64,000 nucleotides of DNA from an uncultured Clostridia bacterium (GTDB lineage: Bacteria; Bacillota; Clostridia; Christensenellales; UBA1242): NCBI GenBank assembly GCA_947584415.1, contig CANPWN010000001.1, positions 13,216 to 77,215 of the forward strand, written 5' to 3'. Below are positions 6,154 through 35,188 of the stretch, piece after piece; position 1 is the first letter of the stretch; each line of letters starts with the position of its first letter. A model generated the notes under the pieces. The model was not told the DNA's origin and searched no databases. It worked only from the letters and a program-made list of their open reading frames with translations. The translations under genes and the position numbers were made by a program.

Positions 6154-7356
6154 TTATTCAACAATCTTTGAAACAACGCCTGAGCCAACAGTTCTGCCAC
6201 CTTCACGGATAGCGAAACGAAGTCCTTCTTCGATAGCAATATCAGTGATAAGTGTGATTGTCATGTTAACATGGTCACCAGGCATAACCATTTCAACGCC
6301 CTTTTCAAGTTCGATTGTTCCAGTAACGTCAGTTGTTCTGAAGTAGAACTGAGGTCTATATCCATTGAAGAATGGAGTATGACGTCCGCCTTCTTCCTTC
6401 TTCAAAACGTAAACCTGAGCAGTAAACTTTGTGTGTGGGTGAATTGAACCTGGCTTGCAAAGAACTTGTCCTCTTTCAATTTCGTTTCTCTGAATTCCAC
6501 GAAGAAGAAGACCAACATTATCTCCGGCTCTTGCTTCATCAAGAAGTTTTCTGAACATTTCAACGCCAGTGATAACTGTTTGTTTCTTAGCGCCCATACC
6601 AACGATTTCAACAGTGTCGTTCATCTTAACAGTTCCACGCTCTACTCTACCAGTTGCAACTGTTCCACGACCAGTGATTGTGAAAACATCTTCAACAGGC
6701 ATCAAGAAAGGCTTGTCAGTGTCACGCTTTGGTTCAGGGATATAAGCATCAACAGCAGCAAGAAGTTCTTTGATGCATGTAACTGATGGGTCATCAATCT
6801 TTCCAGCAGTAACAGCTTCCAAAGCTTTGAGAGCTGAACCTTTGATGATAGGTGTTTTGTCTCCAGGGAAACCATACTCTGTCAAAAGGTCACGAATTTC
6901 CATTTCAACGAGTTCAAGAAGTTCTGGGTCATCAACTTGGTCAGTTTTGTTCATGAACACAACAATGTATGGAACACCAACTTGACGAGCGAGAAGAATA
7001 TGCTCTCTTGTTTGAGGCATAGGTCCGTCTGTTGATGCAACAACAAGGATAGCGCCGTCCATTTGAGCAGCACCAGTAATCATGTTTTTAACATAGTCCG
7101 CGTGTCCCGGGCAGTCAACGTGAGCATAGTGACGAGTGTCAGTTTCATACTCAACGTGAGCAGTGTTAATTGTGATTCCTCTTGCTTTTTCTTCTGGGGC
7201 TTTGTCGATTTCATCATATCTCATAGCCTGTGCTTTGCCGATTGCAGCACTATATGTGCAGATTGCGGCGGTAAGGGTGGTTTTACCATGGTCAACGTGT
7301 CCGATGGTACCGATGTTTACGTGAGGTTTGTTTCTCACAAATGATTCCTTAGCCAT
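6154..7356 (-). CDS. tuf: Elongation factor Tu
   Basis: [18 protein letters not shown] and NKTD motifs; 400 aa. Confidence 0.98.
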
Positions 7357-7436: not shown

Positions 7437-9515
7437 TTAATTCTTTTTTGCTCTTTCGCCAACAATCTTTTCGGCGATTGATTTTGGAACTTCCTGATAT
7501 TTGAGAGGTTCCATAACATAGTTGCCTCTTCCCTGTGTTTGAGAACGAAGGTCAGTTGCATATCCGAACATCTCTGCAAGTGGAACTTCTGCATTGACAA
7601 TCTGGATGCCAGCGTTGGTTTCTGTGCCTGTCAGCATTCCACGTCTTGAAGTAAGGTTTCCCATAACTGTGCCAAGATATTCATCTGGAACTTCAACTGA
7701 AACTTTCATGATAGGTTCAAGTAGAACTGGGTCTGCTTTCTTTGCGCCATCTTGGAAAGCCATTGAACCGGCAATCTTGAAGGCCATTTCTGAAGAGTCG
7801 ACTTCGTGATAAGAGCCATCAACAACTGTTGCTCTAAAATCAACCGTTTCATATCCAGCAATAACACCGTTCATCCTTGCCTCAGCAATTCCGTTGTTAA
7901 CAGGTTGGATATATTCCTTTGGAATTGAACCACCAACAGTCTTGTCAACGAATTCGTATCCTGAGCCTGCAGGAAGTGGTTCCATTTCAATTATGCAGTG
8001 GCCGTATTGACCTTTACCACCGCTCTGACGGATGAACTTGCCTTCTGCCCTAACAGGTTTGCGGATTGTTTCTCTGTAAGAAACCTGAGGATTACCAATG
8101 TTAGCCTCAACCTTAAACTCACGAAGAAGTCTATCCACAATGATGTCAAGGTGAAGTTCACCCATGCCAGCAATAAGCGTTTGACCTGTTTCAAGGTTTG
8201 TTGAAACACGGAAAGTTGGGTCTTCACGCATAAGTTTTGCAAGCGCGAGAGCCATTTTTTCTTGCATATCCTTTGTTTTTGGCTCAATAGCAAGTTGAAT
8301 AACAGGCTCTGGGAAGTCCATGCTTTCAAGTTGGATAGGATGTTTTTCATCACAGAGTGTATGCCCTGTGATTGTGTCTTTAAGTCCAACAATAGCAGCA
8401 ATATCACCTGCACCAACTTCGGTAATTTCCTGGCGTTGATTTGCGTGCATCCTGATAAGACGCCCAACACGCTCAGTCTTGCCGGTGATTGAGTTGTAAA
8501 CATAAGAGCCGGCTTTCAAAAGTCCACTGTAAACTCTGAAGAAAGTCAGTCCGCCAACAAATGGGTCAGTCATAATTTTGAAAGCAAGACCTGCAAAAGG
8601 TGCATCCTCACTTGCCTCGCGGCTTTCCTCTTCGCCTGTGTCAGGGTTTGTGCCTTTGATTGGTGGGATGTCAAGTGGAGATGGAAGATAATCAACCATA
8701 GCATCCAAAAGCATCTGAACACCTTTATTTTTATATGATGAGCCACAAAGAACAGGCGTGAAGTGTCTTTCAATAGTTCCCTTTCTTATCCCTGCTTTGA
8801 GTTCATCAATAGTGATTTCATCACCCTCGAAGTATCTTTCAAGCAGTGCGTCATCAATTTCAACAATTTTTTCCACCATTTCTTCACGAAGTTTTTGTGC
8901 TTTTGCTTTATATTCTTCAGGAATTTCGGTGATTTCAATCTCTTTTCCGAGGTCGTCTTTGTAAACTTCAGCCTTCATTGTAAGAAGGTCAATAATTCCG
9001 CTGAAAGTATCAGCCTCGCCAATATTAAGTTGAATTGGGAGCGCTTTTGTTTTCAAGCGTTTTTCAATAGAGTCAACGCAGCCCATAAAGTCGGCAGCAT
9101 CTCTGTCCATTTTGTTGACATAAATGATTGTTGGAACTCTGTATTTTGTTGCTTGACGCCAAACGGTTTCCGTTTGAGGTTGAACTTTATCACGAGCGCT
9201 AAGCACAAGCACTGAGCCGTCCAAAACCTTCAAAGACCTTTCAACTTCAACAGTAAAATCCACGTGTCCCGGGGTGTCAATGATGTTGATTTTGCGGCCT
9301 TTCCAAAAGCAGGTTGTGCAAGCAGAAGTAATGGTGATGCCACGCTCCTGTTCCTGAGCCATCCAGTCCATGGTGGCTTGTCCATCATGAACTTCACCAA
9401 TCTTGTGGTTTTTGCCAGTGTAGAACAAAATTCTTTCAGTTGTTGTGGTTTTGCCTGCGTCAATATGAGCCATGATTCCAACATTTCTGGTCATATGCAA
9501 ATCGGTTGTAGCCAT
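7437..9515 (-). CDS. fusA: Elongation factor G
   Basis: [20 protein letters not shown] and NKMD motifs; 692 aa; str operon context. Confidence 0.98.
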
Positions 9516-9725
9516 TTTTATTTTCTCCTTATTTTATTGTTTGCCTCAAGCAAACTTTTGCAAAGTTTCTTTCGGTTGCCGTCGGGCGAAGCCCTTCTTC
9601 GGCAAAGTTAACTTACGCGATTTTATATTGTCTTTGAGAAATTTTTAAAACCCCCTTCGACAACATTGTTTTTTAATTTTTAAACTTCAATCAGTTGTTT
9701 AATGAAGTTTGAATTAAACATTTTA

Positions 9726-9916
9726 ATCCGGAGTCTCACTTTCACGGAGAAGGGCTTTGCCCGGCGGGAAAGTGAGGCGAACCCTTCTCTCGCAGAAAAA
9801 TGCCCAGCGGGGTTTTTCAAGAGGCGAAAGGGGGCTCGTGGGGTCGGAACGAATTTCAGCGGTTAGGAAAACTTGTTTTCCGTGCCCGCGTTAAGAAATT
9901 CTAGTTCCCCCCACAC
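9726..9916. repeat. GC-rich interspersed structured element, copy A (about 191 nt) in the rpsG-fusA spacer
   Basis: Shares its conserved 5' 56 nt (atccggagtctcactttcacggagaagggct...) and 3' hairpin core (gcggttaggaaa..tttccgtgcccgcg) with 34324-34517. It is locally much more GC-rich than the surrounding AT-rich DNA. On the minus strand it begins 3 nt after the rpsG stop codon. Confidence 0.8.
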
Positions 9917-9919
9917 TTT

Positions 9920-10393
9920 TTACCATCTATAATGTGCAAAGGCTTTGTTTGCTTCTGCCATTCTGTGAAGTTCATCCCTGCGCTTGATTGACGCGCCTGT
10001 TCCATTGTAAGCGTCAATAAGTTCGCCTGCAAGACGAGCGTCCATTGTTCTCTCACCAGTTCTCTTTCTTGCGAAAGTAACAATCCAGCGAATTGCAAGT
10101 GTTTGACGGCGTTCTGGTCTGATTTCCATAGGAACTTGATAGTTTGCACCACCAACACGCCTTGCTTTTGTTTCAAGCATAGGTTTCACATTTTCAAGTG
10201 CCTGATTGAACACATCAATAGGCTCTAATCCTGTTTTTTCCTTAACAATGTCAAATGCACCATAAACTATTCTTTGAGCAAGACCTTTCTTTCCATCAAG
10301 CATAACTTGATTGATAAGTTTGGTTACAGTTTTGCTTTTATAAATAGGGTCAGGAAGGACAGGTTTTTTAACGGCACTATTTCTTCTTGCCAT
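9920..10393 (-). CDS. rpsG: 30S ribosomal protein S7
   Basis: Canonical S7 sequence, 157 aa, str operon. Confidence 0.97.
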
Positions 10394-10448: not shown

Positions 10449-10829
10449 TTACTTTGTTTTCTTTGGTCGCTTTGCGCCATATTTGGAACGAGATTGATTT
10501 CTCTTTGCCACGCCGGCTGCATCAAGAGTGCCGCGGATGATGTGATATCTCACACCAGGCAAGTCCTTAACTCTGCCACCCCTAACAAGAACAACGCTGT
10601 GCTCTTGAAGGTTATGCCCAATTCCTGGGATGTAGCAAGTTCCTTCCTGTCCATTTGAAAACTTAACTCTGGCAATTTTACGGAGCGCTGAGTTAGGCTT
10701 TTTAGGTGTTGCAGTTCTCACAGAAAGGCAAACACCTCTTTTTTGTGGACATTCATCAAGAAGAGGGGCTTTTGATTTTTTGTCAAAAGTCTTTCTGCCC
10801 TGACGAACAAGTTGGTTGATTGTAGGCAT
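10449..10829 (-). CDS. rpsL: 30S ribosomal protein S12
   Basis: [12 protein letters not shown]...[10 protein letters not shown], 126 aa. Confidence 0.97.
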
Positions 10830-11098: not shown

Positions 11099-14000
11099 TT
11101 ACCACGGAGTTTTCGCCTCTGTAAAACCATAAGCTTGCAATCTTGCCAAAATTTCTGCAGGTGTATGCATATTTGGAGTAACCCAACTTTCTATCTTATC
11201 TAATTTTACGATATCTCCAACTATCGCAACTAACGGATGATATGGAAGACCAAGCATAAAATTATCATTATATGCCCATGGCATTGAGTTGCTGTTATTA
11301 AAATCCCAATAGACTTTGCGTGAATTAATAAGGATGGAAATAAAAGTATCTCTATCAGTTGCTCCCACAAGAAATTCACCACCAACATCACCCGGGTCAA
11401 TGCCAAAAAGATAAGTTTCAACAATATCTCCTGTTATACCAGTGTCGCTCGTTGTCGTTGGAAGCAAAGTGTAATAAAATCCGTATGCAAATGAAATCCC
11501 AATGTTTATAGTCGTATTAGCAGTAACCGCTCCAATAAACGCAGAACAACCTTTAATATTTGGAATTGAACTCATCTCATAAATGTCTTGATTCTTTTCA
11601 ATCATAGTGCAACGACCAATGTTAACTTGCCAATTTGTAGCATCAACAATAAAGCCACTTATAAAACCTTCAGTCAAAGCAGAACGTTCACAATAGACAT
11701 TTACTAATGTGATTTGACCATAATACGGAGTTTTTGTAAACACATATCCGCCTATCAATGCACTTGGGGCTTCCCATGTGCTTGTTCCTATACATAAATT
11801 CAAAAAATTAATATTAGAAAGAGTCATTCTGGATGTGGCCCAAATGAAACACGCCATAGGTGCAGCCGTATCAAATTCAGCCACAGTGCCTTGATATGCA
11901 GGAGCATTGTCAATGCAGTTTAAATTGATGATGGAGTGTCCTTGTCCGTCCAATGTGCCACTAAAATATCTGATGGCTCTAAAATCAAATTCTAAAGCAG
12001 TGCAGTCAATGTCATTGTCAAGATAAAATGTCATATCAGAGAAACATTCTGGGCCGTTATAAGAGTAAGAATAATCCGACATTGCTACCAGGCCAGTGTA
12101 ATCAGTGATGTGATACGAGCCGTTAGAGGCTTTTGTTATGCCTGGATAAGAAAGAATTAAATTATCAAACGTTAATGCTTTAACCACCTTACTACTATTA
12201 TCTAGCCTCAAACATGGACGAATACCACAATCCAATGTTTTATTTTTATCACGTAATGCACCATATTCAGTTATTATGCAGGCACGATCATTTACGGAAC
12301 CAAATGAAAGTCCTTCCGAACGAAGCCAATATTCCCCGCCAGCCATCCTAGATGAATTTCGTTCGATTGTGCTAGTTTCTGCTTCACTTGACTGGTCAAC
12401 TTCTCCACCTGTGGCACTATGAGATGCAAGATAATATTTCCCTTCAGGATCGCTCGCTGGACAATATGTGCTGGTCATTTCAGTGTATGACAAAAGCCAA
12501 ACATAATCCTGTGTTTGATAAGTCGTATCATCAAGAAAGTCTCCAGTTGTATTAGTTTTGGAAACAACAAATCCACTATTTAATCCAGCATTCTTATAAA
12601 AAGTATTATTAAGCCAACCTGATATTGAATATTTATCATCTTGCCATGTTACAGAACCCTCACCATCAGAAAAAGGGAATTCTTCTAAAATAGTGTCAGA
12701 TATAACGTCAACTCGCGTTGCTGTTGCAGGGTTCTGTCCATCAATAATCCACCATTTGATTGGTTTTGAATTATATGTGCCAAGTTCTGTGTAATAATAT
12801 ATATGTCCATTTAAGACTTCTGGAGTCCATGTCAATGATGCCTGTTTGACTTCATATTTAAGCGTCAAACATGGACGAATGCCGAGATAAGTTAAATTTC
12901 TTTGATTTAAGGCAGAAAGTCCATATGCAACCCCATTAGACCCCGCAGTATAAATATCGTTTCCTGCCGCTGAACGTAACAGCCAGTTCGTTGTCCCTGT
13001 CCTATAATCAGACTTATATGATGATTCCATAACTGCATAATTGGCAATTGCAAAATCACTCGGAGAGGCCGTTCTGGAGCCAAATTGTGCTAAAGCTGTG
13101 GCTTCATGGTCGTTGTAATATCCTCCAGAACTTCTATGCGAAGATAGATAATATGTTGTATTGCCTTTAGGACTATATTTGTTTAACTCATCATACGACA
13201 TAAGATAAACATAGTCTGATGTGTTTGCTCCACTGCCATCAGAAGTGCTACTTGATGTGTTGTTTTTGACTGTTTCATTCTTTATCACAGATGTCTTGTA
13301 TGACGAAAGCCCAGAGTCTGTAAGAAATGTGCCATTTAACCAAGTGCGAACATTGGAACTACTCCATAAATTATTTGTTCCCGTTGAAAATGGAATATTC
13401 GCCGCAAGTGCAACATCTGAGATTACCCTTATCTCCTTTGTTCCAGAAACTGTGTTTGGATTTGTTCCATCAATTATCCACCATTTGATTGGCTCAACTT
13501 TAAACCATTTCGTTGCACCAGTTGAACCAACAGATGTCCCATTTTTAAAAGTGTAAGATGTGTTATATACCGTTTGACTTCCTGAAACATATTTTTGCCC
13601 AGAAAGGCTATATTCCGTCCATGTTTTGCTACCCACAGTGTATGTTTTTCCCGTTTTGGATGTAGGCGTTGAACCAGAATAATACATTTGAGGATAAGTG
13701 CCAAGTTCGGTGTAATAATATGTATTGCCGTTTAATGTTTCACTTTTCCATGTTATGTTTGATGTTGTTGCCGCCTCACCAACATCTGAGATTGTGGATG
13801 GCTCAGAAATATTGTTTAAAGGAATTGAAATTTGCGGGAAACAAAATAATGACAAAACAAATGCCATGAACAAATATGAAAATGAATGTCTCGTTTTTGA
13901 ATAGATGTTCTTCACATCCATTAGTATAGGTTTTTTTGATATTTTTAGCAAATATTTTTCGACATTTTGTCGAAATTTGCTTTTCTTTTTCTCCTTATTT

Positions 14001-14122
14001 TGTGGACAACTTTTAGTTAAGCAGTAAGGTTGCCCCCCCCCCGGTGACATTTTGTTACAAAAAGTTTTTTCATTTTCATTTTTTCCTTTTTGTGGATAAA
14101 CTTCTGTTATTAGTATAGCCAA
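11099..14122 (-). CDS. Large secreted protein: two DUF6273-like domains plus a C-terminal FxGxLDGQGHxI-type beta-helix domain (start codon ambiguous, see poly-G leader)
   Basis: Maximal ORF is 1007 aa. The signal-peptide-like segment YLFMAFVLSLFCFPQISIP follows the ATG at 13921. Two units of PIKWWIIDG...WLN.TF...WLLRS...GIRPCLTL are present. The C-terminal FSGTLDGQGHSIINL motif is shared with the 32879-34078 protein. Confidence 0.8.
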   Translation of the reverse strand: MAILITEVYPQKGKNENEKTFCNKMSPGGGQPYCLTKSCPQNKEKKKSKFRQNVEKYLLKISKKPILMDVKNIYSKTRHSFSYLFMAFVLSLFCFPQISIPLNNISEPSTISDVGEAATTSNITWKSETLNGNTYYYTELGTYPQMYYSGSTPTSKTGKTYTVGSKTWTEYSLSGQKYVSGSQTVYNTSYTFKNGTSVGSTGATKWFKVEPIKWWIIDGTNPNTVSGTKEIRVISDVALAANIPFSTGTNNLWSSSNVRTWLNGTFLTDSGLSSYKTSVIKNETVKNNTSSSTSDGSGANTSDYVYLMSYDELNKYSPKGNTTYYLSSHRSSGGYYNDHEATALAQFGSRTASPSDFAIANYAVMESSYKSDYRTGTTNWLLRSAAGNDIYTAGSNGVAYGLSALNQRNLTYLGIRPCLTLKYEVKQASLTWTPEVLNGHIYYYTELGTYNSKPIKWWIIDGQNPATATRVDVISDTILEEFPFSDGEGSVTWQDDKYSISGWLNNTFYKNAGLNSGFVVSKTNTTGDFLDDTTYQTQDYVWLLSYTEMTSTYCPASDPEGKYYLASHSATGGEVDQSSEAETSTIERNSSRMAGGEYWLRSEGLSFGSVNDRACIITEYGALRDKNKTLDCGIRPCLRLDNSSKVVKALTFDNLILSYPGITKASNGSYHITDYTGLVAMSDYSYSYNGPECFSDMTFYLDNDIDCTALEFDFRAIRYFSGTLDGQGHSIINLNCIDNAPAYQGTVAEFDTAAPMACFIWATSRMTLSNINFLNLCIGTSTWEAPSALIGGYVFTKTPYYGQITLVNVYCERSALTEGFISGFIVDATNWQVNIGRCTMIEKNQDIYEMSSIPNIKGCSAFIGAVTANTTINIGISFAYGFYYTLLPTTTSDTGITGDIVETYLFGIDPGDVGGEFLVGATDRDTFISILINSRKVYWDFNNSNSMPWAYNDNFMLGLPYHPLVAIVGDIVKLDKIESWVTPNMHTPAEILARLQAYGFTEAKTPW
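14033..14042 (-). repeat. Homopolymeric G10 tract (C10 on plus strand) in the 5' leader/N-terminal region of the 1007-aa gene
   Basis: Counted directly: 14033-14042 are all C. The tract lies 37 nt downstream of the RBS+ATG (14079). Confidence 0.9.
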
Positions 14123-28802: not shown

Positions 28803-29898
28803 CTATATTTTTTGAAGATAATTGTTGATAAATTCTTGAATATCACCGTTCATGACCGCCTGAATATCACTTGTTTCATAACCTGTTCGGTGGTCTTTTA
28901 CAAGAGTGTAAGGGCAAAAAACATAACTTCGAATTTGGCTGCCCCACTCAATTTTTTTGACTTCACCCTTTATTTCTGCCAAGTGTTCCATCTCTTCGCG
29001 TTCCTTCTTTTCCGCCAAACGCGAGATAAGCATTTTCATGGCAACTTCTTTGTTTTGAATTTGTGAGCGCTGCGTCTGACAAGACACAACAATGCCTGTT
29101 GGCAAGTGTGTTATGCGAATTGCCGACTCCGTTTTGTTGATGTGCTGGCCACCAGCACCACTTGAACGGAAGGTGTCAATTTTGAGTTCGTCAGGCTTGA
29201 TTTCAATTTCATCATCCTCTTCAAGTTCCGGCATAACTTCGACTGATGCAAAGGATGTGTGTCTGCGCGAGTTCGCATCAAAAGGCGAAATTCTCACAAG
29301 CCTGTGAATACCCTTTTCCGCCTTTAAATACCCATACGCGTTCTCGCCAGAAACGATGAAGTTGACATTTTTTATCCCCGCCTCATCACCATCCAAAACA
29401 TCCAAAATACTGAGTTTGAAGCCCGCTTTTTCGCTATACATCTGATACATTCTCAAAAGCATCTGCGCCCAGTCCTGCGCCTCAGTTCCGCCTGCGCCGG
29501 CATGAATGTTCATGATCGCGTTGCAGGAGTCATATTTGCCATTCAAAAGCGTGACAATCTTCATCTCTTCCTGCCGCTTTTCAAAACTTAAAAGCTCGGA
29601 TTGAAGCTCCTTGAAAAGCTCGCTGTCCTCGTCCGCCTCGCACAGTTCAATGAGCGCCGCGATGTCGTCCGCCTGCTTTTGCAAGGACTGCACTTCTTCC
29701 AATTTTCTTTCCTTGCTTCTCAGCTTTTTGCCCACTTCGCTCGCCTTTTTTGTGTCAAGATAAAAGTCAGGGCTCAGCTGCGCCTCTTTCAAAGCTTTAA
29801 CTTCGCTTTCAATGTTGGCGACGTCAAAGACACTCCTTTAAAAAACTAAAGTTCTCTTGCAAGGTCTTAAACCTGTTTTTTTCGTTATCAACAACCAT
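28803..29898 (-). CDS. prfB: Peptide chain release factor 2, with programmed +1 frameshift
   Basis: ORF0 runs from the ATG at 29898 for 24 codons to CTT TGA C (29829-29823), preceded by the SD-like AGGAG. The +1 frame continues DVANIESEVKALKEAQLSPDFY into the 329-aa ORF carrying SPF and GGQ (SGAGGQHINK). Confidence 0.93.
29823..29840 (-). promoter_or_regulatory. RF2 autoregulatory +1 frameshift site
   Basis: aaAGGAGtgtCTTTGAC: an internal SD, a 3-nt spacer, and the CUU UGA C slippery/stop context. Confidence 0.9.
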
Positions 29899-30107: not shown

Positions 30108-32738
30108 TTACTTACCCAAATTTTCCAATGCAGCATCAACCTCGTCAATAATCTCTTCATTATTCATAAGGCTTGAGATATAGCCCAGTGCATCAGCGGG
30201 AATGTCATCAGTAAGTTTTTGTTGCATCTCTTCTGTGATAGCTTGTTTCACAGTTGCACTTGAGCATTTAGCAACCAGCCTAAAAGTTTTGAACAACTCT
30301 TCTACACTCTCAATATCAACATTATCACCGTCAGCATATTTATCAATATCTTGTGCCAATTTCACAACTCTTGCTGCGTAAGATTTCATATTTCTAACGG
30401 TTGGGCGCTTGTCTTCAGGCAACCTGCCAAACAACTTTTGTGACGCTTTGTCAAATGTTTTGCGATACATAATCACATCCATGTAATCTTCGAATATTAC
30501 TTTATCATCTTCACCTAACAAAGATGTCCCGAGCATTGTAAGTCCAGCAAGTGTGAGCATGTCCTGTGCGCCAAGTTGTTGCATATCATCTTCCAAGGTC
30601 TTTTCGCTTTCAAGGGCTTTAAGACCTCTTTCTCTATCAGTCTTATACCAAACGCTTTCTTGCTCATTAGAAATCTCTTCCGCTTCTTCTTCTGGCTGTT
30701 CTGCCTCTACTTCAGCATTTTCTTCCTCAGCCTTTTCTTCCTCAGCCTTTTCTTCCTCTTTTGCAACATAACCTGTTACAGTGCCTGTGTCAACTTTCCC
30801 GTCAACTATTGCTTGTCCACAAACATTGGCATCACCACAAACTTCTGCGCCTTTGTTTATTTTGGCATTTCCATAAACTTCTGCATTGCCATAAACAACA
30901 CAGCCATTCAATTCTGCTTTGCCATACACTTCTGCACCATCAGACACAACCGAATTGATAACTTTTGCGGCTCCATAAATTTCAGCATCATTAAGAATCA
31001 AACTTTTTTCAACTCTTGCTGCTCCATAAACTTCAGCATCACCTTCTACTATTGAATTCTTAATGCTTGCAACACCATAAATCTCGCCACCATAAATTAA
31101 AGATGAATTTACATTTGCAACGCCATATACTTCAGAGCTTATTAAAAATGATTTTTTTATAAGTGCCTTTTCGTAAATATCAGACACTATAATTAAAGAA
31201 TCTTCAATTTTAGTGTCATCGGAAATGTTTGTTTGACCTATCAAATATGAACTTTTGATGTTTGGCGTTCCAAAAATACATGCTTCTTCATCCATCCATG
31301 ACTCTCCGTCATCTTGCCAATCACCTAGTGCATTTAATTCAACAAAACCGCCAAGTGTTCCTTCTTTAATTTCACAATCGAATTCGCCTTTGTCCATATC
31401 TTCAACAAATTCTTCCATGTCTTTCTTAAAATCTTCATCGTCAATTTCAGACATACCCGAATTCAAAGCCTTTTTCGCAAGTTTCTTTGCAACATCAGTC
31501 GATTTAGCCAAAGAGATGTCTTTCAAAGCGACAATTTGGTTCAGAGTGTATGTGTTACCATTTGCATCTTCAAAATCTTTTGTTATATTTGTTACGCCCC
31601 AACCATTAAGAGTTTTGAGAATTTCATATTCTTCTCCATCTTCTTCTACTTCTTCCTCTACTTCTTCGTCAGGTTGCGCTTCTTTTTGTTTATTGGCAAA
31701 TTCAACTTCAAGTTGTTCTCTAAGTTCCGCCTCAATCTTTTCCCTAAGTTCAGCTTCAACTTTTGCCCTTGTTTTGGCTTCAACCTCGGCAGTTGTCTCC
31801 GCTTTAACTTTGGCAGTGATTTCTTTTTCTACTTTTGCGGTGATTTGAGGTTTAAGTTTGGCTATAAGTTCAGCTTGAACATCATTAAGCAGCGCTGCTT
31901 TACGCTCTTGATATTCTTTTTCATATCTATTTGCTTTGATAACTGATGGCTCGCCTTGTTTTGGTTCAACAACTTGTCCCATCCCAACATTGAAGTCCAC
32001 TTTGGCATATCCACCAATTTCGGCATCACCGTCAATTCTTGCATTGCCAAAGACTTCTGCATTGCCAGAAACACGCGCACCTTTGTTTAAAATAACTCTG
32101 CCACCAGGGAAAACTTCTTCCCCACCGCAAACAGCAGCATCTTCATAAATTTTGACATTTCCTCCGACTTTGGCTGCGCCATACACTCTTGCATTGTCAG
32201 TAACTTCAGCAGAGCCATCAACGCTGGCGCCGCCAAAAACTTCACTATCTCCATGAACATACGCGTTCCCACTTACTTTTGCATTGCCGTATACCTTCGC
32301 GTTGTCAGTTATCAAACCACTATAAATTTGGGCTTTGCCATACACTTTTGCATCGCCATTGATAACGCTTCCTGAATAAGCATATGCTTCACCATACATT
32401 TCTGCGTTACCGCTGATAACGCTTCCTGAGCAAGCATGCGCTTCGCCATATAGTTCTGCGTTACCGCAAATCATTGCATCACTATTAACAACTGCTTTAT
32501 CATACACTTTTGCAGTGTCTCCAATCCACCCTTCTAATGGATAGAACCTTCTTTCTTGATAATTGTAATATCCACCCAAAGTCCCTTCTGTTGCAATAAT
32601 TTTGCCATCTTTATCTGTGATATCTTTGATAGCAACAACACGGTTTAGCACAATATCCTTTCCATTGCGCGTAATGGTTAGGGTTATGTCTGTTACGCCA
32701 AAACAAGTTTTTTCATCTATAATTTTGTATTCGTCCAT
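30108..32738 (-). CDS. 876-aa cytosolic protein with two tandem [small beta domain + left-handed beta-helix hexapeptide repeat] modules, a charged coiled coil, acidic linkers and a helical C-terminal domain
   Basis: Start set at MDEYKII (AGGAGGggaaaATG at 32738); the 908-aa track ORF runs through its own promoter. Strict 6-residue periodicity is visible (YGNAKV SGNAYV HGDSEV FGGASV DGSAEV TDNARV YGAAKV ...). There is no signal peptide. The module heads LNRVVAIKDI..EGTLGGY and LNQIVALKDI..EGTLGGF are duplicated. Confidence 0.8.
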   Translation of the reverse strand: MDEYKIIDEKTCFGVTDITLTITRNGKDIVLNRVVAIKDITDKDGKIIATEGTLGGYYNYQERRFYPLEGWIGDTAKVYDKAVVNSDAMICGNAELYGEAHACSGSVISGNAEMYGEAYAYSGSVINGDAKVYGKAQIYSGLITDNAKVYGNAKVSGNAYVHGDSEVFGGASVDGSAEVTDNARVYGAAKVGGNVKIYEDAAVCGGEEVFPGGRVILNKGARVSGNAEVFGNARIDGDAEIGGYAKVDFNVGMGQVVEPKQGEPSVIKANRYEKEYQERKAALLNDVQAELIAKLKPQITAKVEKEITAKVKAETTAEVEAKTRAKVEAELREKIEAELREQLEVEFANKQKEAQPDEEVEEEVEEDGEEYEILKTLNGWGVTNITKDFEDANGNTYTLNQIVALKDISLAKSTDVAKKLAKKALNSGMSEIDDEDFKKDMEEFVEDMDKGEFDCEIKEGTLGGFVELNALGDWQDDGESWMDEEACIFGTPNIKSSYLIGQTNISDDTKIEDSLIIVSDIYEKALIKKSFLISSEVYGVANVNSSLIYGGEIYGVASIKNSIVEGDAEVYGAARVEKSLILNDAEIYGAAKVINSVVSDGAEVYGKAELNGCVVYGNAEVYGNAKINKGAEVCGDANVCGQAIVDGKVDTGTVTGYVAKEEEKAEEEKAEEENAEVEAEQPEEEAEEISNEQESVWYKTDRERGLKALESEKTLEDDMQQLGAQDMLTLAGLTMLGTSLLGEDDKVIFEDYMDVIMYRKTFDKASQKLFGRLPEDKRPTVRNMKSYAARVVKLAQDIDKYADGDNVDIESVEELFKTFRLVAKCSSATVKQAITEEMQQKLTDDIPADALGYISSLMNNEEIIDEVDAALENLGK
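30718..30758 (-). repeat. 15-nt tandem repeat (2.7 copies) encoding EEKAEEEKAEEE
   Basis: The unit ttttcttcctcagcc is repeated exactly at 30718-30732 and 30733-47, then partially. Confidence 0.8.
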
Positions 32739-32771
32739 TTTCCCCTCCTGTATGAACTTTTTTACGAGATT

Positions 32772-32800
32772 ATTATAAACCCTGTCGTCGTCAATGTCAA
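32772..32800 (-). promoter_or_regulatory. Perfect consensus sigma-A promoter of the hexapeptide-repeat protein gene
   Basis: TTGACA-17 nt-TATAAT on the minus strand. Confidence 0.75.
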
Positions 32801-32848
32801 TACCCAATTTTTCAGGAAAAACGGATAAAAACACGCTTTCCCAGACAA

Positions 32849-32878: not shown

Positions 32879-34078
32879 TTAATTAACTTGTCCTGCCCAA
32901 TAAAAGTGCCTAAGATGTGGCTGTCCGTCTGCCCCTGTAAACCATTTGGATGGAGTGAAACTGGATTCGATGGCCTCGCCATTGACATAGACACCTTGAT
33001 AATTACACCAATAATAGCTTGGAAAATATTCACCACCTTCAAAAAAAAGCCCTCCATAAGCCAGACAGTTGAATGCACAATCATAAAAAGTAATGTTATA
33101 ATCATGTGTATAACTGAAAAGACAATAGCTACTCCCATTACCCTTATTTATGTAAAATTCACATCCTGTACACGTAAAACTGGAGAATGCGGCAACCTCT
33201 AACAACTGACATAACCACAAATAATTTACATCAATTAAAACATTATTCAAAATGACATCTGCAAACCCCTCGCCGTCATATGTATCAATAATTAAACACA
33301 TACCATCCGCTATAATTACTGAGTCTGTCATGTAGATCTCAGAACGACCATAATTATCTGTATAAGTGGTTCCTACCAAGGTATCACAAATCGCTTCACG
33401 ATTAATAAAATTTAAATCACTTATAATCAATTTGCCATGCAAATTTGCACAAAGATTGCCGCATTCTTTAATTTTTATATGTGAAATGCGGCACATATCA
33501 AATGCGGAACATATGAGAGGAGCACTTATTCCTTCAATAGTAATATTTTGTAAAGTAAAATCACGCACAGAGTCGAACAAGTAATAGCCATCATATGTAA
33601 TAGTATGCCCTTGCCCATCAAAAATACCTTTTATATATTCTGAACTGATAAGTGTTGGTTCGTAGCCAGTCAAATCAAGGTTATCGTCAAGAAGATATTT
33701 ATAATCACTATAAAAAGTCACTTCAGGATTAGCAAGAGCCTCTTGCAAAAAAAGATAGCCATCAATTGAGTTTATGTGAATACTTACACATGATGAAATA
33801 TAAGTCTCATCATATCCTTTCCAAATTCCACTTCCATCATCCTCATAATAAGGCACCATATCTTCAAATTCTGTATATTCATCCGTTACAGCAGTGGCTT
33901 CAGTCGGCAAAGCGGTGACATCAGTGGTTGGAAGAGCATTCAACGGAAGGCAAAGAAGAGCAAAAATAAAAGCCAAGGCGGTTGAAAAAATTATTTTCAA
34001 AAGCCCCGGCTGTTTTGAAAAATGTGGATAATTTTTAGTTAGGCAGTAAGGCTGCCCCCCCCCCCCGGTGGGTAACAA
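32879..34078 (-). CDS. Secreted beta-helix protein (FDGQGHTI motif family); start ambiguous, see poly-G leader
   Basis: The track ORF starts at a TTG. The hydrophobic signal-like segment is KIIFSTALAFIFALLCLPLNA. GIFDGQGHTITYDG plus Cys/aromatic-rich beta-helix-like repeats, ending ..GQPHLRHFYWAGQVN. Confidence 0.75.
   Translation of the reverse strand: MLPTGGGGQPYCLTKNYPHFSKQPGLLKIIFSTALAFIFALLCLPLNALPTTDVTALPTEATAVTDEYTEFEDMVPYYEDDGSGIWKGYDETYISSCVSIHINSIDGYLFLQEALANPEVTFYSDYKYLLDDNLDLTGYEPTLISSEYIKGIFDGQGHTITYDGYYLFDSVRDFTLQNITIEGISAPLICSAFDMCRISHIKIKECGNLCANLHGKLIISDLNFINREAICDTLVGTTYTDNYGRSEIYMTDSVIIADGMCLIIDTYDGEGFADVILNNVLIDVNYLWLCQLLEVAAFSSFTCTGCEFYINKGNGSSYCLFSYTHDYNITFYDCAFNCLAYGGLFFEGGEYFPSYYWCNYQGVYVNGEAIESSFTPSKWFTGADGQPHLRHFYWAGQVN
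34055..34066 (-). repeat. Homopolymeric G12 tract (C12 on plus strand) in the 5' leader of the 399-aa gene
   Basis: Counted directly: 34055-34066 are all C. The tract lies 22 nt downstream of GAGGAaaaaATG (ATG at 34088). Confidence 0.9.
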
Positions 34079-34170
34079 AATGTTTCATTTTTTCCTCGCT
34101 TGTATTTTGTCTATGTGGATAACTTACAAAGGTATTATAACCGAAAATTAGCGAATAACCAAACAAAATA

Positions 34171-34203
34171 ACAAAAAATCCCAAAAATGTTGACATTTTT
34201 GGG
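34171..34203 (-). terminator. Terminator ending the 222-aa gene / GC-element transcript
   Basis: Minus strand cccaaaaatg-tcaa-catttttggg followed by attttttgttatttt. Confidence 0.6.
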
Positions 34204-34318
34204 AAAACGAGCAGTGTTGCCCGTTTTTTTGTTGCACCCGACAAGTTTTTTACTTGGAGACCAATTTTATGGGGGAAGGGCTTTGCCCGACCAAAAATTC
34301 TAGTTGCACCAGCGATTT
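34204..34318. repeat. Two internally deleted copies (C2 34204-34255, C1 34262-34318) of the GC-rich element
   Basis: On the minus strand C2 reads aaaacttgtcgggtgcaacaaaaaaacgggca..ttttccc, matching the copy B 5' hairpin. C1 reads ggtgcaactagaattt..gggcaaagcccttc, joining 5' and 3' motifs of copy A. Confidence 0.65.
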
Positions 34319-34323
34319 TAAGC

Positions 34324-34517
34324 ATCCGGAGTCTCACTTTCACGGAGAAGGGCTCTGTCCGGCGGAAAAGTGAGACGAACACCTCTACCACGTCGCAAGG
34401 CGCAGGTATCAAGTCTTGCAGTGGTGCGAAGGGGGGCCTGTGGGGGGAAACAAAAAAAAGCGGTTAGGAAACAATGTTTCCGTGCCCGCGTTTTCTTTTT
34501 TTGTTGCACCCCACAAG
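34324..34517. repeat. GC-rich interspersed structured element, copy B (about 194 nt)
   Basis: Its 5' 56 nt are about 90 percent identical to 9726-9781, and its 3' hairpin core is shared with copy A. On the minus strand it starts 3 nt after the stop of the 222-aa gene. Confidence 0.8.
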
Positions 34518-34519
34518 TT

Positions 34520-35188
34520 TTAGAACCTCGGTTGATTTATTGGCCCTGTTGCCGTTGGATAGAGCGGCATTTCAAAGAGTCCTGGGCAAGCACTTGATGA
34601 CGGTGCTGCCTGGCATGGTGGGATAACAGGATAACCATAAGATGGCACAAGCACATCAACGAGTGCTGTCACCCTCAAAATTACTTGTAAGCAGCCGGTT
34701 ACAGTGAAGGTGTTTTCAGCCGTGTAAGAGCCAATTTCACTTGAGAACACAGCGCTTGCAGAAATGTTGATTGGAGTGACAGAAGGTTGAGGAACAAAAA
34801 GAATTACGCTTTTTGAAACGGTGATTGTGCTTGTTCCTGTGCCAAGAACGCCGTTTGCATCACGATAAGTCACCACAATTGGGATGGTCACATTTGCACT
34901 CACATTAGCATAGTTTGGGCTGGAGTCAATTCTGTCCACAACAAGGTCAGATATGGTCACTGGACCATTTGTTGCGTTTGCAGCAGAAACATATGTGAGT
35001 GGCAAGGCTGGAGAAGCCGGAGTTAAATCAGTGACTGCAAGCACAATGCCAGTTTCGGTGCTTTGTGACACGCAGGCGTCAAAAACCTTGGTTGTTTCAA
35101 TCAAGATTTTTTCACAAATCCCATTGAGCGGGTTGCCCATAATAGGCCCTGGACGATTAGGATTTGTATTATTGATGTAAAAAGACAT
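34520..35188 (-). CDS. 222-aa beta-rich Thr/Ser/Val/Pro-rich protein, candidate spore-surface/coat component
   Basis: Strong RBS (ataGGAGGtaggaaaATG), no signal peptide, and a Pro-rich Cys-containing tail (PPCQAAPSSSACPGLF). A sigma-K-like promoter lies upstream. Confidence 0.6.
   Translation of the reverse strand: MSFYINNTNPNRPGPIMGNPLNGICEKILIETTKVFDACVSQSTETGIVLAVTDLTPASPALPLTYVSAANATNGPVTISDLVVDRIDSSPNYANVSANVTIPIVVTYRDANGVLGTGTSTITVSKSVILFVPQPSVTPINISASAVFSSEIGSYTAENTFTVTGCLQVILRVTALVDVLVPSYGYPVIPPCQAAPSSSACPGLFEMPLYPTATGPINQPRF

Follow-up and report, generated by a model that had tools for sequence, protein, structure and literature searches.

Why should 404 bp of DNA separate rpsG from fusA in the str operon of an uncultured Clostridia bacterium? 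The question is raised by a stretch of 64,000 nucleotides from contig CANPWN010000001.1 (the window, whose positions are used throughout), where the coordinates of the open reading frames (ORFs) place rpsL (10449-10829), rpsG (9920-10393), fusA (7437-9515) and tuf (6154-7356) in this order on the minus strand. A first-pass annotation of this sequence had noticed a GC-rich repeated element in the rpsG-fusA spacer, with a near-twin at about 34324. We find that the spacer copy (copy A) is a real repeated, structured and non-coding element, and that it belongs to a previously undescribed family of small, modular, low-copy elements of this kind.

A repeated, structured element in the str operon

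The rpsG-proximal half of the spacer has a GC content of 0.50 (9700-9999) compared with 0.35-0.38 in the rest (9500-9799). Copy A and its twin, copy B, align in the same plus-strand orientation with a mean column identity of 82%. This identity is a mosaic: the first 63 nt (repeat family D7) are 90% identical, and the domains that form the long hairpin H3 are 69% identical. In both copies the foot of H3 lies 5 nt from a TAA stop codon, that of rpsG for copy A and that of the minus-strand ORF 34520-35188 for copy B. Compared with shuffled sequences, copy A folds with z = −4.4 on the plus strand and z = −4.3 on the minus strand. Two covariance models were built, R1 for the long hairpin and R2 for its core; R1 matches copy A at 9825-9921 with 79 bits and copy B with 78 bits, scores that are partly circular because both copies were in the alignment used for the model.

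With the window plus strand designated E+ and its complement E−, the family layout is hairpin H1, hairpin H2, a purine-rich tract and hairpin H3 (Table 1). H1 carries a nearly invariant apex (GAAGGGCUUUGCCCG) on a flanking stem that varies between copies; the apex motif occurs four times in the window (0.14 expected), and the flanking stem covaries among 10 homologous modules. H2 is of the AAAAAUG...CAUUUUU type, at times with an extra hairpin, and equivalents of the window hairpin also occur at L013, L002 and L007b (loci outside the window carry the prefix L). The centre of H3 reads AGCNGUUAG-variable stem-loop-CGUGYCNGCGU, with 17 invariant columns in 16 sequences, and its internal loop sets UUA opposite GUGY between two short helices. 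Element size ranges from about 190 to 330 nt across the family. The modules also occur solo, as H1 in the fusA leader (9577-9605), as H1 plus half an H3 beside copy B, and as H3 in L006. Together with H1 of copy A, the solo H1 of the fusA leader makes up an inverted repeat, which spurious microRNA-model matches spanning 9579-9767 had flagged.

The annotation had drawn a long hairpin with a conserved apex and a compensated lower stem (GAATTTC/GAAATTC in copy A versus an A-run/T-run in copy B), and all of these are present. Among 16 sequences, 94% of the H3 cells pair, compared with only 40-53% in controls with slid partners; 14 of the 22 pairs change on both sides, and none of 500 shuffles reaches the observed values. 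Within the core, 100% of the cells pair and every change is compensatory: GCGG/CCGC becomes GCCG/CGGC in L006b and L007b and GCUG/CAGC in L013, and there are five different apical stems. The covariation, which the annotation had proposed to look for, is clear in both H3 and its core, and judged by these substitutions their structure is under selection. The H-type pseudoknot suggested for the other end fared differently. Its letters are present and its CTCACTTTC/GAAAGTGAG stem is real, being the covarying outer stem of H1, but no homologue outside the window has the CCGG/CCGG pairing, and the pseudoknot is therefore unsupported. The GAGAAGGG/CCCUUCUC pairing in the plus-strand minimum-free-energy fold of copy A was likewise discarded, since it is not conserved in copy B or elsewhere.

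Table 1. Positions of the two copies, their parts and associated features in the window
Feature	Position	Strand	Basis or remark
rpsG-fusA spacer	9516-9919		404 bp; ORF coordinates
Copy A (H1-H2-purine tract-H3)	9726-9921	+ (best-folding strand)	Alignment with copy B, covariance model, folding z = −4.4
H1, hairpin CTCACTTTC...GAAAGTGAG, invariant apex GAAGGGCTTTGCCCG at 9749-9763	9735-9776	+	Motif count, stem covariation
H2, hairpin GAAAAAUGCCC-AGC-GGGGUUUUUC	9795-9818	+	Read from sequence
Unpaired purine-rich, Shine-Dalgarno-like tract GAAAGGGGG	9826-9834	+	Unpaired columns 3-10 of alignment A4; consensus GRAAGRGG
H3, long imperfect hairpin GTGGGG..GGAAC..GAATTTC-core-GAAATTC..GTTCC..CCCCAC	9838-9914	+	Minimum-free-energy folds, pairing in 16 sequences
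Invariant core AGCGGUUAGG-stem-loop-CCGUGCCCGCGUU	9853-9898	+	R2 match, 58 bits
T5 run after H3	9917-9922	+	Overlaps complement of rpsG stop codon (9920-9922); repeat family D14
Promoter-like TCGACA-N18-TAAACT upstream of H1	9657-9686	+	Consensus scan, pattern match only; candidate start of a plus-strand RNA
Promoter-like TTTAAA-N18-TAAAAT facing fusA	9620-9649	−	Consensus scan, pattern match only
Solo H1-type hairpin TTGCCG-AAGAAGGGCTTCGCCCGA-CGGCAA in fusA 5′ leader	9577-9605	− (opposite to copy A)	Motif match 9583-9597
Copy B	34324-34521	+	Alignment; R1 34426-34521, 78 bits; R2 core 34454-34498; abuts stop codon of ORF 34520-35188
Decayed tandem remnants adjoining copy B	34179-34322	+	Sequence, motif match, repeat family D6, terminator scan
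Remnant 1, H2-like hairpin	34179-34204		Reads as minus-strand terminator
Remnant 2, 3′ half of an H3	34211-34252		
Remnant 3, solo H1	34256-34301		Apex 34275-34289
Remnant 4, H3-foot-like piece	34303-34322		

Further copies, which the annotation had also proposed to seek, were found in related genomes. A scan for the apical motif in one genome per species returned eight matches, seven in metagenome-assembled genomes (MAGs) of uncultured Clostridia and one by chance, and a relaxed pattern returned 20 matches in metagenomes, five of which lie in low-GC contigs and are true members. The remaining metagenome matches in high-GC DNA, as well as a Caldilineaceae match (L005), are chance occurrences inside coding sequence that lack the apical complementarity. 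Eleven pattern matches in viral contigs are also due to chance; they lie in higher-GC DNA and lack the flanking helix. R1 and R2 together recover 20 copies in about 400 kb; the copies that they added are a second one each in L006 and L007, variants in L013 and those in the rpsG-fusA spacers of two close relatives. Scanning whole genomes with the exact pattern gave one or two matches per MAG; in the 64-kb window there are two core-bearing copies. As far as seen, the family is restricted to a lineage of uncultured, sporulating, low-GC Clostridia near Candidatus Caccovivens, the only named source of homologues.

In line with the annotation, we could match the element to no RNA family. The window gave no Rfam 15 match at the gathering threshold, and 12 copy-bearing loci gave only tRNAs and a 16S rRNA; at E ≤ 10 or E ≤ 1, only chance-level microRNA and small RNA models appeared, far below threshold. 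Comparison of copy A with phage and plasmid collections by blastn produced no match, and a literature search with the core sequences and descriptive terms returned nothing relevant. Several more specific identities were also rejected. The core resembles a tRNA D-arm ("GCGGUUAGG"), yet ARAGORN finds no tRNA or tmRNA gene in the window and calls only genuine neighbouring tRNAs at the other loci. By eye, the H1 apex and the core loop fit the consensus of neither a K-turn nor an 11-nt receptor. A small ORF or leader peptide is excluded because the apical stem-loops differ in length by non-multiples of three; furthermore, type 1 copies lack start codons. A fusA riboswitch or ribosomal protein leader does not fit either, as copies adjoin unrelated genes and most close relatives lack the element in their fusA leader.

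Occupied and empty sites behind gene ends

Exact-protein look-ups of RpsG and of the protein of ORF 34520-35188 (ORF222) from the window matched no record, and relatives were therefore reached by way of homologues with 84-95% identity (RpsG 91-95%; ORF222 91% and 84%). As the annotation had stated, the rpsG-fusA junction is usually short: it measures 23 bp in L038-40, 66 bp in L029-31 and 72 bp in L041-43, all without the element, and 87-88 bp in L033 and L035-37, which contain only a recognisable H2 remnant. An intact copy is present in the 239-bp spacer of L032 and L034, as it is in the 404-bp spacer of the window. L033 and L032 encode an identical RpsG protein, yet one has the remnant and the other the intact copy. 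At the site of copy B, relatives L044-L047 contain no element, and those with ORF222 proteins 91% and 84% identical have a plain intrinsic terminator directly after the stop codon. Both window copies are thus missing from the same sites in close relatives, and the element behaves like an insertion. Outside the rpsG-fusA site, R1 and R2 found no copy in about 295 kb of DNA flanking these sites in the relatives.

The window spacer contains, in addition to copy A, about 200 bp of AT-rich DNA with the solo H1 hairpin of the fusA leader and two back-to-back promoter-like sites (9657-9686 on the plus and 9649-9620 on the minus strand). In the window, fusA may have acquired its own promoter, both sites being pattern matches only. 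In the relatives with the 239-bp spacer, a small GGGGAUAAUCCCC hairpin follows an A8 run directly upstream of the fusA Shine-Dalgarno sequence (L032 10640-10700, gene strand); on the opposite strand this hairpin reads as a terminator facing the element.

Wherever the neighbour is known, E+ points its H3 end at the 3′ terminus of a convergent gene. Only 1-6 nt separate the foot of H3 from the gene end at rpsG (window, L032/L034 and L013), ORF222, ychF (L007b and L006b), a gene for a class A penicillin-binding protein (L019), a 412-aa gene (L008), tRNA-Ala (L004/L001) and tRNA-Glu (L007a). At L002 an ORF runs into the element and stops at a conserved UUAA, and at L022 and L023 a bidirectional terminator stands between the element and the gene end. 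L007 contains two copies 2.6 kb apart in opposite orientations, both tail-to-tail with a gene, with the strand of L007a flipped relative to its neighbours. Since both orientations obey the rule, the rule concerns the local gene end and not the direction of replication. The junctions are A/T-rich (TAAAAA, TAAAAC, TAAAAT, TAAATAT, TAGA, or CCA followed by AAAAA), with no one motif that fits all. Copies A and B have TAAAA at both ends, which may be a duplication or a part of the element.

Some sites hold more than one unit. The block at copy B consists of three tandem units, each starting (in gene sense) with TAAAA and a similar H3 foot, and the sole intact unit is the one nearest to the stop codon. 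At L013 an intact copy against rpsG is followed by three variant units of about 245 bp (480-1040), each with a TTGACT-N17-TAAACT promoter-like site, an inserted extra hairpin and compensatory changes in the core (AGCUGUUAGC...GCGUGUCAGCG); on this contig rpsG is not followed by fusA. The H3 domains of L004 and L007a are 90% identical in different contexts, tRNA-Ala and tRNA-Glu, respectively. At L023 (925-1420, in E+ orientation) and L006 (1-330), direct repeats that include the 3′ part of tRNA-Glu (with a terminator at L023) flank short non-coding structured segments and look like scars of integration at tRNA-Glu. L006 also duplicates conserved non-coding modules, including a hairpin-rich piece of 66 nt (CCGCTTTCACGCCGGGGCGG...GTTCGATTCC) shared with L007. 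Between comFC and these shared modules, L006 carries a prephenate dehydratase gene and a 125-aa ORF with a solo H3 at the end (504-1577), and this two-gene segment is missing from the otherwise syntenic L007 (3200-3515).

That a solo H3 closes a segment absent from a syntenic locus might be read as the mark of a site that works as folded single-stranded DNA, such as an attC-like recombination site, a single-strand-origin-like site or an HUH hairpin site. Strand-specific folding, the placement flush with or overlapping ORF 3′ ends and an AAC...GTT at the same place of the H3 stem in all copies would suit such a site. We nevertheless consider it very improbable: the ORFs scanned near the copies include no integron integrase, cassette array, Rep or relaxase gene, the orientation to the adjacent ORF is reversed relative to the usual attC, the inner part is the most conserved here and the most variable in attC, and copies sit in core loci (str operon, rRNA leader, tRNA trailers).

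Strand, transcription and a proposed mode of spread

Which strand is selected? Read as E+, the helices of H3 hold 19 G-U and 4 A-C cells, to which H2 contributes two more G-U pairs and H1 of copy B one A-C. All 13 copies tested fold more stably as E+ than as E−, the difference ranging from 0.6 to 9.4 kcal/mol, and the conserved unpaired tracts are A/G-rich in E+. This evidence, moderate and not decisive, suggests that the selected strand is E+, which is antisense to the str operon transcript and opposite to the strand that the annotation had assumed. Transcription as part of the operon, which the annotation had considered, is supported. In L032/L034 only about 75 bp lie between H1 and the fusA start codon; there is no room for a separate fusA promoter, and fusA must be reached by read-through from rpsG. 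Therefore, the str mRNA very probably reads through the element. At L009 a TTGACA-N18-TAAAAT promoter, which matches the consensus at 11 of 12 positions, precedes the element, and the 5′ end of the 16S rRNA follows it.

If E+ is itself a transcript, the element could be an independent small RNA (sRNA) gene that converges with rpsG and acts in trans, its core binding a protein or an RNA. Such a gene would have its promoter upstream of H1, which would serve as a 5′ protective hairpin; the purine-rich tract would be a site for ribosome or protein binding or for stabilisation, H3 with its U run would form an intrinsic terminator just before the rpsG stop codon, and paralogues would have been gained and lost over time. 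The better folding of the plus strand, which holds the G-U pairs, and its A/G-rich unpaired tracts are consistent with this proposal, as are promoter-like sites before H1 in the window (TCGACA-N18-TAAACT) and in each L013 unit (TTGACT-N17-TAAACT). An A/T-rich TAnAAT-like box occurs at the same place in L002 (TATAAT), L004 (TAAAAT) and others, and the L022 and L023 versions are bounded by clean terminators. T runs of at least four follow H3 in about 7 of 13 copies (T5 in copy A, T4 in copy B), but a terminator scan limited to loops of 3-8 nt did not call H3. Moreover, most copies have −35 elements that are poor or wrongly spaced, and the intact copy of L032/L034 leaves no room for a plus-strand promoter, with an E+ terminator directly upstream of H1. 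At L009 the transcript would run head-on against a near-consensus rRNA promoter; convergent transcription in an essential and highly expressed operon should be costly, and the copy is dispensable and decaying in close relatives. On balance, we regard an sRNA gene as rather unlikely.

The annotation itself had favoured a cis-acting element of the minus-strand str mRNA, a 3′ end or stabiliser of rpsL-rpsG or a processing or regulatory site, that would uncouple the levels of ribosomal proteins and EF-G; at other loci the corresponding RNA would derive from a 3′ untranslated region (3′UTR) or tRNA trailer and expose a CU-rich, anti-Shine-Dalgarno-like tract. At nearly all loci E− runs in the same direction as the flanking genes, and in L032/L034 and the 16S leader of L009 its transcription is unavoidable; like REP-type stabilisers, it begins 1-6 nt after stop codons or tRNA ends. 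A minus-strand terminator follows the element in the copy B block, L004 and L007a, the complement of the purine-rich tract (CCUCUUCC / UCACCUCCU) resembles the Shine-Dalgarno-pairing seeds of Firmicutes sRNAs, and the minus strand also folds well (z = −4.3). What makes this explanation unlikely is that the neighbouring genes are unrelated, and hence offer no common regulatory logic, and that the element is missing from the str operon of most close relatives and decaying in some. In addition, the G-U and A-C counts and the folding energies favour the other strand, 17 invariant core bases exceed the needs of a stabilising hairpin, and L007a and L006a are co-oriented with the upstream gene in the plus sense.

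The explanation that we favour, with a confidence slightly short of even, is a non-autonomous element that is copied to positions just behind gene ends by way of a folded E+ intermediate recognised through its core, and that is passively read through in the operon. We prefer it because of the filled and empty sites, the strict orientation, the decayed tandem remnants, the similar copies in different contexts and the invariant, recognition-like core. According to this scheme, the element would insert directly downstream of gene ends with its H3 end tail-to-tail with the stop codon or tRNA 3′ end. To propagate, it would need a folded intermediate specific to one strand, be it RNA or single-stranded DNA of the window plus strand, and a factor acting in trans would recognise the intermediate by the invariant core of H3 (AGCNGUUAG / CGUGYCNGCGU). 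In the str operon it would have inserted between rpsG and fusA, with the operon mRNA reading through its complement. As this complement lacks a terminator-like U tract and the mRNA reads through, any effect on the expression of rpsG or fusA would be a by-product; possible by-products are a 3′ hairpin after rpsG, an extra fusA promoter and the H1 hairpin in the fusA leader.

A number of observations weigh against mobility. No transposase, reverse transcriptase, integrase, RAYT, TnpA(Y1) or TnpB gene, some of which the annotation had proposed to look for, was found among 20 window ORFs (those that Pfam-annotated synteny in relatives had not already accounted for) and 10 ORFs adjoining other copies. 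Neither terminal inverted repeats nor an unambiguous target-site duplication could be defined; the spacers of filled and empty sites have diverged too far for the latter to be derived from their comparison. The copy number is low, and the copies within one genome are old, as the 69% identity of the H3 domains of A and B illustrates, unlike the products of a recent burst. By our reading, the G-U excess in E+ falls to about 12 against 5 independent A-C events once shared ancestry is considered, which makes it suggestive only. E− is certainly transcribed in L009, as part of the rRNA leader, and in L032, and a function in E− RNA is possible. Finally, loss in the relatives, instead of gain here, could also explain the pattern at the rpsG site. 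The window is core chromosome, with the str operon, the dnaK operon, the dcw cluster and genes for sporulation sigma factors.

A bolder form of the mobile-element explanation would make the family a novel class of non-autonomous elements targeted to the 3′ side of transcription units, directly behind stop codons and tRNA 3′ ends and in fixed tail-to-tail orientation, by way of a strand-specific folded intermediate with an invariant core. We think this unlikely to be correct as it stands, although two routes can be envisaged. Either a terminator-ended RNA is retroposed in the manner of a short interspersed nuclear element (SINE), its 3′ U run annealing to the A run after a stop codon, or insertion is coupled to transcription termination by a still unlinked HUH enzyme or recombinase. 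If one site were hit again and again, this would explain why intact copies are found next to the gene and decayed ones further off.

If the element is mobile, it follows a targeting rule for which known bacterial small repeats offer no explanation (insertion right at gene ends, in fixed orientation, even in the str operon and a 16S rRNA leader), and this would point to an enzyme that recognises it. Should it instead be an sRNA or a cis element, it would represent a new class of structured RNA with 17 invariant core bases, suited to pull-down and structure probing. Either way, it accounts for the unusual length (404 bp) of this gap, which lies in an operon that ranks among the most conserved. 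For annotation, this serves as a warning that long spacers of core operons in uncultured Clostridia may be insertions and not regulatory leaders.

Other features of the window and comparison with known systems

Apart from the element, the window contains two genes for large surface proteins (11099-14122 and 32879-34078) with a common leader of 42 nt that includes a G10 tract (14001-14042 and 34023-34064, minus-strand sense). Exact copies of the DnaA-box-like TTATCCACA flank these leaders at 14091-14099, 34023-34031 and 34114-34122. In relatives, (GGCT)n or (GAGC)n repeats separate the −35 and −10 promoter elements of the same surface-protein gene. The pattern looks like phase-variable expression. 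ORF 30108-32834 (908 aa) contains many diverged internal repeats of 18, 54 and 75 nt (families D1 and D3) and encodes a repetitive protein of the "GNAxVYGxA" type. A release factor 2 homologue (28803-29792) begins at a TTG codon in the ORF list, without the usual N-terminal segment, probably owing to the programmed +1 frameshift typical of prfB. Of the 54 window ORFs of at least 100 aa, 50 are on the minus strand, an extreme bias consistent with one replichore of a Firmicutes-type chromosome.

How does the element compare with known small repeats? The annotation had likened it to REP/BIME or PATE elements, and its insertion-like behaviour and position at gene ends agree with this comparison; its size, copy number and end hairpins do not. 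With REP, BIME and REPIN sequences (mobilised by RAYT, a Y1 HUH enzyme) it shares an extragenic location, a GC content above that of the surroundings, hairpins just after stop codons, presence in operon mRNAs and compensatory change. Many copies also have (G/U)UAG just 5′ of the core helix, a further point in common with REP elements. However, REPs are 20-40 nt long, number tens to hundreds per genome and are often clustered in alternating orientation, whereas the present element measures about 190-330 nt, has three modules, is low-copy and always tail-to-tail, contains an asymmetric invariant internal loop and has no RAYT gene in the ORFs scanned.

The PATEs of the IS200/IS605 family (and the ends of its members that bear TnpB omega-RNA) are likewise non-autonomous and strand-specific, have hairpins near both ends, lack coding capacity and insert in a specific orientation next to a short target. 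In contrast to PATEs, the end hairpins of our element are unrelated to each other (H1 apex GGGCUUUGCCC; H3 core GCGGUUAGG...CCGUGCCCGC), no parent insertion sequence, TnpA or TnpB was found, and there is no defined tetra- or pentanucleotide target. Two opposite orientations within 3 kb at L007 also argue against a replication-strand rule. Integron attC sites resemble the element in that they lie at the 3′ end of an ORF, sometimes overlapping the stop codon, that one strand folds, that structure is conserved above stem sequence and that the stem contains AAC/GTT. The fit to the attC R″ and R′ boxes (RYYYAAC / GTTRRRY) is partial: the H3 stem conserves AAC and GTT, but not the purine/pyrimidine pattern around them. 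The element further differs from attC by the absence of intI and a cassette array, a conserved apex, the reversed orientation to the ORF and its presence in core housekeeping loci.

Modular repeats of other Firmicutes, such as BOX, RUP and SPRITE of pneumococcus and bcr1 of Bacillus cereus, occur in AT-rich genomes, are predicted to form stable RNA structures and are co-transcribed; they exist in dozens to hundreds of near-identical copies and show no strict gene-end placement. Our element is similarly modular, with solo H1 and H3 modules, and has no sequence similarity to them (Rfam and BLAST negative). In the minus orientation it also resembles sRNAs derived from 3′UTRs or from tRNA trailers (3′ external transcribed spacers), where a gene or tRNA is followed by a structured region with a CU-rich tract and a terminator. 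Those sRNAs are locus-specific, whereas the element is one sequence family behind many unrelated genes, with the better-folding strand antisense. In position, therefore, the element is most like REP/REPIN, PATE and attC, yet it fails at least one defining feature of each. We conclude that it constitutes a new family among the small structured intergenic repeats, with its rule of placement at gene ends as the most unusual aspect.

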